Positions 699 through 61,660 of a DNA stretch of 64,000 nucleotides are shown here, piece by piece. The stretch comes from Octopus vulgaris (lineage: Eukaryota), in NCBI GenBank assembly GCA_951406725.2, contig OX597815.1, positions 47,306,001-47,370,000 on the forward strand, given 5' to 3'. Both the position numbers and the translations under genes were made by a program. The notes under the pieces were generated by a model. That model was not told the origin of the DNA and ran no database searches. It saw only the letters and a list, made by a program, of their open reading frames with translations. Numbering within the stretch: the stretch's first letter is position 1; each line of letters opens with the position of its first letter.

Positions 699-1596
699 AA
701 ATAATAAGTAAAAGGACATGAAATTCAAGCATGAAAATCTTTTTTTATTTCGCATCGTCGGTTATATTCATACATTTGACGGAATTAATATACGATGTTA
801 AATTCTTTGATCTAGGGTACAGCAGCCTTTGCTAATTTGTTCTTAATGAATTGAATATAATAAATATTACGCTTTGTAAGCAGTGAATTAACTTCCTCAA
901 ACACAAACCAACTTTATATCGCATATAGCATTCTATAGAAGGTTGTTATTGCTACTGTTGTTGTTATTCCTTAGCACCTCGTCAGCTTCGATTGAGCAAA
1001 GACGTTACTATCGGCAGCATCTTTCATTTTCGACCCTCCCAAGTCACAACGAAATTTATTTCAATACAGGAATTCCCATCAAGGGTCTTGCAAACTAAAC
1101 ACAAAAACAATCTAATTTATTTGGCCATATATGTTTCTAGGACGGTATTTTTTAATTTGTCAGTTTTTTTCCAGACATCACAACATGATTCCAGCGACAT
1201 TTGTTCACTATTTTAAACGGGTCGGGTAACCGTACAAAACTCGCTTGCTGGCTTTTATCACAGCAATATTTGTAATGAACGTTCTTTCGGAAGAATAATG
1301 CTTAGTTTGTTTAATTTTACAAACTGACATATGATATTGGACCTCTCTCCAAGAACACTTCAGAAAAGTGAATCCTACCGTATTCTCGGGTTCATCAACT
1401 AAGGGAGGTGTTTGGTTGCTGTAAATTGCGCAGAAATCCTCCACACCTATCTACTTTTTATCTATTCTCCTCTCTTTCTATATATATACAAACTTACTGT
1501 TAAGAAAAGTCGGGATGCGTGGCGTTCAGCTATTCCATAAATGAAATATACATTAAATTCTACAAAACGTAGACGTAGGACAGACACGATGACCCT

Positions 1597-1663
1597 AATG
1601 CTTCATCAGTTATCGACCAAAAATTCTAATATCCAATTTCATGCCTTTAACGATAAGACTGGG
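1597..1663 (-). ncRNA. Permuted hammerhead-like motif, copy B
   Basis: Minus strand: CCCAG-UC-UUAUCG-uuaaa-GGCAU-GAAA-UUGGA-(16 nt)-CGAUAA-CUGAUGA-A-GCAUU; stems I and III pair, stem II decayed. Confidence 0.45.
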
Positions 1664-2223
1664 AACTTCGTATAGCGGTGGCACCTGCAAGATTTGTGTA
1701 CAATTAGGGCTCAAGCAAATAAAACAATACAGGGTGGCCGTACGAAAGTAAACAAATGTAATTTCAAACGATAGTTGAAGACAATAAATCACGCCTTTCG
1801 GCCAAACATGATTATGATTGGTAACGCCTGGAAGAAAACCTCAAATAGATATAAAATCAAAATTACTAAGAGAAGAGAAAAAGTTCACTAGCACTCTGGG
1901 CATCCGGTGGCGAAAAGCAGAAGATAGAAAATCAGTCAAGGATCACGTCTGGGCAGCAGACATAAAGGAAGGAGGGTGAGAGGAGAGAGAGAGAGAGAAC
2001 AGAAGGAAGGGAGAAAGTCTACAGTTAAGTGCGAAAAGACGAGAGAGAGTGAGAGAGGAAGTGGGAATGCTAGAAAAGGAATATTAGGATGAACGAGAAA
2101 GAGAGAAAGAAAAATAGAGTCGCAAAAAATATATACAAACTTACTGTTAACAAAAGTCGGAATAGTTATTCCATAAATGCAAAATGCTACCAAACGTACA
2201 CGGAGGACAGACACGAGGACCCT

Positions 2224-2290
2224 AATACTTCATCAGTTATCGACCGAAAATACTAATACCCAGTTTCGTGCCTTTAACGATAAGACTGGA
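2224..2290 (-). ncRNA. Permuted hammerhead-like motif, copy A (best)
   Basis: Minus strand: UCCAG-UC-UUAUCG-uuaaa-GGCAC-GAAA-CUGGG-(16 nt)-CGAUAA-CUGAUGA-A-GUAUU; GUC triplet, 6-bp stem I, 6-bp stem III, stem II 4 of 5 pairs. Confidence 0.55.
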
Positions 2291-2751
2291 AACTTCGTAT
2301 ATCGGCGTCACCTGCAAGATTTGTGTAGAATTAAGGCTCGATGTACATTATACATACCGACACCAACATCTATTAATCATTCAAACTGCTTTTTTCTTGT
2401 ATAATGAAAGTAATCATACAATTACAATTCCGAACAGTTTATTCTGTTGTTGCAACATATCTTGCTTCATGGCTGGTCAGACTTAGGCTTAGAAAGAATG
2501 AGGAGTAAAATTACTACATCCTCCCTGCCCTTCAGACCCTGTAGAACATTGAAGACCTGACGGCTGAAGGGACAGAGGGCTGCTCCAGCGTTCGGTTGCT
2601 TCTCATTATCCTTGAGTAGCTAAGAGCAATATGAAATGAAGCACAATATTCATAAACACGACGCACCGCCCGGTTCAGGAGTTGAACACACGATTTTATG
2701 ACAACGAGTCGAACATCATAGCAACTAACCACTACTGAAAAAGTAGATATT

Positions 2752-60125: not shown

Positions 60126-60613
60126 GAAATTACATGCTGTTGAAAACACTCTTTTATCTACCGTCAATATAAATCGTACTATATATGTGTGTGTGTGTGT
60201 ATATAGTCTTTTATTTGTTCCAGTTATTTGACTGTGGCCATGCTGGAGCACCACTTTTAGTCGAACAAATCGACCCCAGGATTTCTTCTTTGTAAGCCTA
60301 GTACTATATATATATCTGTATGTGTTTGTGTATTTGTGTTTGCCCCCCCCCCCCCATCACTTGACAACCGATGTTGGTGTGTTAACGTCTCAGTAACTCA
60401 GCAGTTCGGCAAAATAAACTGACAGAAGAAGTACTAGGCTTACAAAGAAGAAATCCTGGGGTCGATTTGTTCGACTAAAAGTGGTGCTCCAGCATGGCCG
60501 CAGTCAAATAACTGGAACAAATAAAAGACTATATACACACACACACATATATAGTACAATTTAAATTTATATTGACGGTAGATAAAAGAGTGTTTTCAAC
60601 AGCATGTAATTTC
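60126..60613. repeat. Inverted duplication of a SINE 3' end plus flank (arms 60126-60305 and 60430-60613)
   Basis: Arms are near-perfect reverse complements and share private SINE variants (AAAAGTGGTG, AATAACTGGAAC). Confidence 0.93.
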
Positions 60614-61169: not shown

Positions 61170-61659
61170 TATTGACCGTGGCCATGTCTATCTTAATAGC
61201 ACCACGTGACCATCGGCCATCTTTCTTTTCCTCACGTGACCATCTTTCTTTCCTGCACGGACTTCTCCTATATCTCTCTTCTATCTTTTCTCTTTTCAAA
61301 GAAAATATTTCTCTCAGCCTTCACTGCTTTCCTCTCGTTCGGGTCTAACGATACTCCATGCTTGTTTTCGTTCGGTTTCCCTGTATATCTCCATTGTCCT
61401 GTTCTTGTTCTTAACTTTGCCCCTCCATAAATCCAAAATTTTATTTTGGTATTTATGGGAGCAACTGTCTTCGAAGACTCATATTGTCGTTGATTGATCG
61501 AAATGGGGAGTAGATAGACAGCCGACAACTGATGAAGGGTCGTTCTGTGTAATCTTTGTATTACTTGTATTGTTCTCCATTTTTAAATCGTTATTTCTGT
61601 ATTTAACTCATTTGTTTTTTCGGATGTCATGTTGTTACTGTTGGCGACGTCCTGTACCA

Positions 61660-61660
<1 letters not shown>
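61170..61660 (+). mobile_element. Penelope pLTR-like fragment with permuted HHR-like motif at 61477-61541
   Basis: CACGTGACC boxes, CT-rich body, then ACUCA-UA-UUGUCG-uugauuGAUC-GAAA-UGGGG-(14 nt)-CGACAA-CUGAUGA-AGGGUC, T-rich tail ending GTCCTGTACC, then (TA)n. Confidence 0.6.

Follow-up and report, generated by a model that had tools for sequence, protein, structure and literature searches.

An opened hammerhead core at the 3′ end of Naiad-type elements in Octopus vulgaris: a six-helix fold predicted to cleave itself

One of the questions raised by the analysed Octopus vulgaris DNA (the window, 64,000 nucleotides in all) is whether a hammerhead-like motif with its strands in a permuted order can still be a ribozyme. 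The preliminary description had placed this motif at 61477..61541, with a weak stem II (GGUC/GAUC) downstream of CUGAUGA, and had taken it for an independent, divergent copy of a motif found in a repeat at 1.5-2.3 kb. Our answer is that it belongs to a six-helix fold at the 3′ end of Naiad-type elements, and likely also of short non-coding derivatives, which contains the full hammerhead core in a non-circular order that is open between A9 and G10.1. From sequence comparison, we regard this fold as likely self-cleaving, with a probability of about 0.7.

The motif itself is real. The core letters and coordinates at 61478-61535 were confirmed in the window, and so were the AUA triplet, the compensatory changes in stems I and III relative to the 1.5-2.3 kb repeat and the spacing of 10 nt between stem I and GAAA, which is equal in both; the linker, given before as 14 versus 16 nt, is 15 versus 17 nt by our count. 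The extent first proposed does hold the core, but the feature starts 58 bases earlier, at 61419, and its helices P0, P5 and P4 had been missed. The window copy belongs to a repeat designated here as family B, a Penelope-like, non-coding unit of about 720-750 nt with (TA)n at its end; the 1.5-2.3 kb repeat is family A. The features are as follows.

61203..61660, plus strand: family B copy, 5′-truncated, with 81-86% identity to other top copies over query 44-499
61419..61424, plus strand: P0 5′ strand, whose partner is the tail directly after CUGAUGA; one mismatch in this copy
61425..61458, plus strand: P5 hairpin, between P0 and stem II with zero unpaired bases on either side
61459..61464, plus strand: stem II 5′ strand, with G10.1 at 61459
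61465..61470, plus strand: P4 5′ strand, of the helix linking the far ends of stems II and I
61478..61489, plus strand: block S, with the stem III 5′ strand (CUCA-U, 61478-82), the AUA triplet (H17 at 61483) and the stem I 5′ strand (UUGUCG, 61484-89)
61494..61507, plus strand: block G, with the stem II 3′ strand, GAAA (61500-03) and the stem III 3′ strand (UGGG, 61504-07)
61516..61521, plus strand: P4 3′ strand
61523..61535, plus strand: first half of block C, with the stem I 3′ strand (CGACAA, 61523-28) and CUGAUGA (C3-A9, 61529-35)
61536..61541, plus strand: P0 3′ strand, which begins immediately after A9
2219..2337, minus strand: family A copy with the same architecture, the upstream copy of a partial tandem
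1592..1710, minus strand: family A copy, the other member of that tandem, at a distance of 627 nt

By hammerhead numbering, the predicted cut in the window copy lies at 61483/61484. Compared with the family B consensus this copy has two helix-breaking changes, at 61420 (P0) and at 61497 (stem II, C to A), and an intact core; it is probably an old, decayed insertion with reduced predicted activity. In family B a 12-nt palindrome at 61467-61478 overlaps P4 as well as the linker that leads to stem III, and could compete with P4; the other families did not show it. An inverted pair of a common short repeat lies closely upstream of the element, at 60226-60534 (L001 467-954 self-match).

The position of stem II is revealed by the consensus sequences. 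The GGUC/GAUC helix depends on a private change of the window copy, as 61497 is C in the family consensus. The 3′ strand of stem II, which stands before GAAA, pairs upstream of block S: GAGCAA/UUGCUC in the family B consensus (30 copies) and GUGCC/GGCAC in that of family A (46 copies), with a G-C pair adjoining GAAA in both. Stem II is restored with this upstream partner, GAAA and the stem III pairing are kept, and P4, P0 and P5 are present in both consensuses. From 5′ to 3′ the order is P0, P5 hairpin, stem II, P4, stem III, NUH, stem I and a short linker, followed by stem II′, GAAA, stem III′, P4′, stem I′, CUGAnGA and P0′. The blocks stand in the non-circular order S, G, C, and block C is interrupted, with the chain open between A9 and G10.1. 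Contrary to the hammerhead rule, stem II does not follow CUGAnGA within 0-2 nt; stems I, II and III with covariation, and the G10.1-C11.1 pair, were all found.

The octopus genome of 2.8 Gb was searched for further copies. Family B, a dispersed repeat, gave 4,438 candidates (40 scored and 30 fetched), and family A gave 778, its consensus being drawn from 46 copies. The pattern CGAAA-N18-32-CTGATGAWGG had 6,533 matches in the genome versus 37 for the reversed control pattern, and with other N7 letters the numbers were 6,764 versus 1,461. When 802 loose matches at the collected loci were clustered, 18 clusters had at least three members (533 matches fell into smaller ones and were left out), and eight of the 18, with 208 copies, have the split layout; the other ten are different repeats. 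CUGAnGA, GAAA, G10.1-C11.1 and A15.1-U16.1 are kept in 8/8 consensuses, CUGAnGA and GAAA having been required by the search itself. The NUH triplets of the eight families are AUA, GUA, GUC and GUU. Upstream stem II has 5-6 bp, P4 4-8, stem III 5-6 and stem I 5-8, while P0 has 5-7 bp except in family G, the autonomous Naiad family, where it has 3; the stem I-stem II linker measures 1-5 nt in all eight, and in six of them P5 abuts P0 and stem II without an unpaired base. Over 30 family B copies the core letters diverge less than the body (7/299 versus 318/4956), and all 11 core letters are intact in 20 of 30 BLAST-picked copies.

Several comparisons show that the upstream strand is the partner of stem II. 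Its helix of 5-6 bp is Watson-Crick in 40/40 consensus pairs, against 13/40 for the bulged downstream register proposed in the preliminary description. When another family's strand was used as a control the helix search gave 2.6 bp, versus 5.4 bp for a family's own strand, and shuffling the upstream window gave p values of 0.003-0.055 per family. In a MAFFT alignment of 21 copies, 90% of cells pair versus 39-45% in slid registers; upstream stem II is 94% paired, with double changes in 4/5 pairs, and the downstream register is 69.5% paired, mostly by G-U. In the same alignment 21/27 pairs of five helices change on both sides, a tool count from which P4, with its two registers, is excluded, and which lends no support to family G because its two rows are misaligned in the 5′ half. 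Across the eight families double-sided changes are seen in all six helices, although the families are related, so these represent few events and the counts are inflated, and the helix registers were chosen from the same consensuses.

One possible option is that the active form is an ordinary type-SGC hammerhead, with a weak stem II whose strand follows CUGAnGA with one A bulged, and that the upstream strand and P0 act as an off-switch. A G-U-rich downstream helix of 3-4 bp can be drawn in 6/8 families, and its first pair is G-C in 8/8. Yet it shrinks to 1-2 bp in families A and G, it opens with a C-C mismatch in 30/32 copies of the metagenome family described below, and it is weaker than the upstream helix by 1.5-10 kcal/mol and competes with P0, which also accounts for the G run. 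We therefore hold this option to be quite improbable. The possibility that short motifs match by accident in a decayed repeat was considered as well, given that the Rfam hammerhead models had no match at E up to 10 (61200-61655) or at E up to 1 (six other copies). It is refuted by the covariation across families, by the excess over the control pattern and by the metagenome pairing, and we give it practically no weight. In the Rfam scan of the whole window, microsatellite-driven miRNA matches were seen among the 150 of 517 rows listed.

Another question regards the element that carries the fold. A place near the 3′ end of a Penelope-like element had been suggested, and this was right; the lineage is Naiad, and not the Penelope type with canonical hammerheads. 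Family G resembles, by eye, the 3′ ends of Naiad_Obim and Naiad_Ovul. A reverse transcriptase (RT) remnant was reached by walking upstream at locus L149, and the family G motif lies 640-2421 nt behind RT remnants at 11 of 50 loci examined, some of them overlapping. At L221 a GIY-YIG piece that resembles the Naiad_Ovul N-terminus by eye is found upstream of the RT, and the RT of a family G element matches RVT_1 with an E value of 2e-4, below the Pfam cut-off. The (TA)n target, the partial tandems and the inverted 5′ copies met here are Naiad traits. A control scan for canonical hammerheads behind ten GIY-YIG matches found neither hammerhead kind. Motifs resembling hammerheads in canonical order, with an extra A before the stem II hairpin, were noted by eye at L073, L092, L098 and L034. 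L067 and similar loci hold Penelope-like elements of a young family with a C-terminal GIY-YIG, in which 781-aa open frames are numerous. About 19 kb past the window end, at C2:47388735-47389270, there is a Naiad RT remnant, with no motif behind it within the flank covered.

Families A and B are non-coding units of 620-750 nt that occur in tandem and inverted copies. No open frame was tied to families B-F or H at loci L071-L120, and for family B no RT-like frame was seen among the output listed, the 30 top copies having about 600-700 nt of upstream sequence in common. Both families are likely non-autonomous Naiad derivatives. Their independence, as first proposed, probably does not hold: the layout is conserved and the letters have diverged, but a short 5′ head is common to both and a weak similarity extends over the motif, so that they probably are anciently diverged relatives.

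The tandems suggest that two copies might be needed, with strands swapped between repeats in the manner of the hammerhead dimers of other Penelope-like elements; partial tandems with spacings of 627, 752 and 898 nt exist, and Cervera and de la Pena (2014, PMC4209133) put forward dimer action for the minimal hammerheads of Penelope elements. The reason for such dimers is absent because stem III, of 5-8 bp, is complete within one copy, and the link between A9 and G10.1 would still be broken in a dimer, which makes this a very improbable account.

The layout is found in other animals as well. Of the 54 published Naiad consensuses (Craig et al., 2021, File S5, PMC8557442), 53 were read by eye over their final 350-420 nt, and 10/53 ends, from a ctenophore, cnidarians, cephalopods and one crustacean, have the split layout. 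These are Obim, Ovul, Esco (stem II imperfect), Amil, Aacu, Anas and Bfor, together with Naiad-2_Movir, Naiad-3_Chem and EuTe, in which P0/P5 would lie beyond the displayed part. Six nematode ends (Naiad-1_Nbra, -2_Nbra, -3_Nbra, Hcon, Hpol and Asuum) resemble by eye intact type-CSG hammerheads with the P4 (stem I-II) helix, and in 37/53 neither layout was seen by eye within the displayed part. Naiad-1_Movir and Naiad_Mley have 3′ ends that resemble twister ribozymes. Bivalve and hemichordate Naiads and Naiad-2_Chem have one or two other conserved motifs in the 3′ slot, without hammerhead letters, which are possibly another self-cleaving RNA.

A pattern made from the Acropora consensus matched at least 120 metagenome stretches, of an animal, coral-like family, and 32 of these extend back to P0. 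In the 32 copies P0 is paired in 225/256 cells, P5 in 178/192 and stem I in 177/192; upstream stem II is paired in 179/192, downstream stem II in 53/192 and stem III in 237/256, and these stem II and III counts stand for pairing and not covariation because the pattern fixed their 3′ strands. Double changes in P0 and in stem I separate two subfamilies, one with 15 copies and one with 14. No RT was found within 1.2 kb upstream of the metagenome copies.

Does the RNA cut? In three RNA runs labelled as a related species (about 6 in 100 of each sampled), family B reads appear on both first-mate strands, and their starts and ends, which come from many copies, do not pile up at the cut. Loose read ends at 61483, seen in 2/3 runs, were discarded as a sign of cleavage, as they have one consensus in common that looks like a single inverted genomic copy. 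The 5′ truncation points of the elements are not clustered at the predicted cut either, with 3/108 within one base. One explanation is that the fold is real but does not cut now, being a hammerhead-derived recognition signal for the Naiad protein or a transcript-stabilising element. This would fit the lack of a pile-up and of a truncation excess, the opened core, which has no tested precedent in the parts of Eckert et al. (2023, PMC10085705) cited here, and the position near the 3′ end, a natural site for a signal bound by protein. Against it, the stems vary freely among eight families and several phyla, yet the catalytic letters and an NUH triplet persist in all of these, and nematode Naiads have, by eye, an intact type-CSG hammerhead in the same slot. 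We consider a non-cutting fold unlikely, though it is the most probable of the alternatives.

A self-cleaving RNA could work as follows. P0 and P5 would stack end to end and thereby bring the strand that departs from A9 close to the one that arrives at G10.1, as a stand-in for the lost backbone link. P4 may act as the contact between stems I and II, and the RNA would be cut after NUH. P0 could close only once the core has been transcribed, and the cut pieces would stay paired through P0, stem II, P4 and stem III. If one copy after another in a tandem transcript were cut, unit-length RNA would be set free for retrotransposition; the processing of tandem transcripts to unit length is also the role hypothesised for the hammerheads of Penelope-like elements.

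We find it reasonably probable, in a wider sense, that in Naiads, across a range of hosts that runs from ctenophores to cephalopods, there is an active hammerhead of undescribed topology, with the core opened at A9/G10.1 and held by a two-helix junction. Together with the nematode CSG forms these would be genome-encoded, non-circularly permuted ribozymes of animals, with more than ten thousand copies in the octopus genome, and the Naiad 3′ end would be a slot for interchangeable self-cleaving RNAs. Naiads were reported to be without canonical hammerheads, some having unexplained ‘HHR_core’ or ‘HHR_half_core’ marks, and to target (TA)n (Craig et al., 2021, PMC8557442, in the sections cited here). 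If the cutting predicted here is true, this would be the ribozyme that they were reported to lack, and a possible answer to how they thrive seemingly without one is that the descriptors are blind to a scrambled hammerhead. The scheme of six hammerhead permutations assumes that the core blocks cannot be interrupted; the split layout, with covariation behind it, breaks this assumption. It also suggests a route between the CSG and SGC forms inside one element clade. Non-circular permutations, known from contigs of metatranscriptomes and metagenomes, are now placed in animal genomes, and in high copy number. For ribozyme switches, a core that can be entered from within would be a new handle.

Dimeric Penelope-associated hammerhead variants have reportedly been described by Lunse et al. 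In the open literature, taken apart from those variants and from the supplements of Eckert et al., no description of the split layout or of permuted hammerheads in Naiads was found. The comparisons with known systems that follow refer to the sections cited of each source. The Naiad clade agrees in its (TA)n target, in having copies in tandem and in inverted arrangement, and in heavy 5′ truncation, while families A and B, unlike those Naiads, are short and non-coding (PMC8557442). The minimal type I Penelope hammerheads are alike in their terminal-repeat place, in the kept G10.1-C11.1 pair and in a core that departs between 9 and 10.1, where an extra base is tolerated; what sets them apart is their circular type I order, the single base added there, a very small palindromic stem III and their action as dimers (Cervera and de la Pena, 2014, PMC4209133). 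The core insertions listed by Perreault et al. (2011, PMC3088659) do not go beyond one or two nucleotides, and according to Eckert et al. (2023, PMC10085705) no known hammerhead has more than 1-2 nt inserted next to CUGAnGA. The pseudoknot-containing hammerhead also combines a hammerhead core with an added helix and an altered connectivity, but its G10.1 comes directly after A9, unlike in the split layout (PMC11300833).

The closest relatives are the SGC and CSG ribozymes, which cleave (Eckert et al., 2023, PMC10085705). Type-SGC (HRIMA-1) likewise has S, then G, then CUGAnGA, and a helix joining stems I and II, with a stem I-to-II linker of about 3 nt compared with 1-5 nt here. Its block C is intact, with stem II after CUGAnGA, whereas in the split layout the strand of stem II, together with its P4 partner, stands at the 5′ end and P0/P5 are inserted; its source is metatranscriptomes and not genomes of known organisms, whereas the octopus layout is genomic. 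Type-CSG, with two examples, has the identical circular strand order, P4 included, but its block C is unbroken and it has neither P0 nor P5. When the ends of CSG are joined and the chain is opened after A9, the layout seen here is obtained, and the split layout may thus be regarded as a fourth opening, this one within block C, of the SGC/CSG class described by Eckert et al. (2023).
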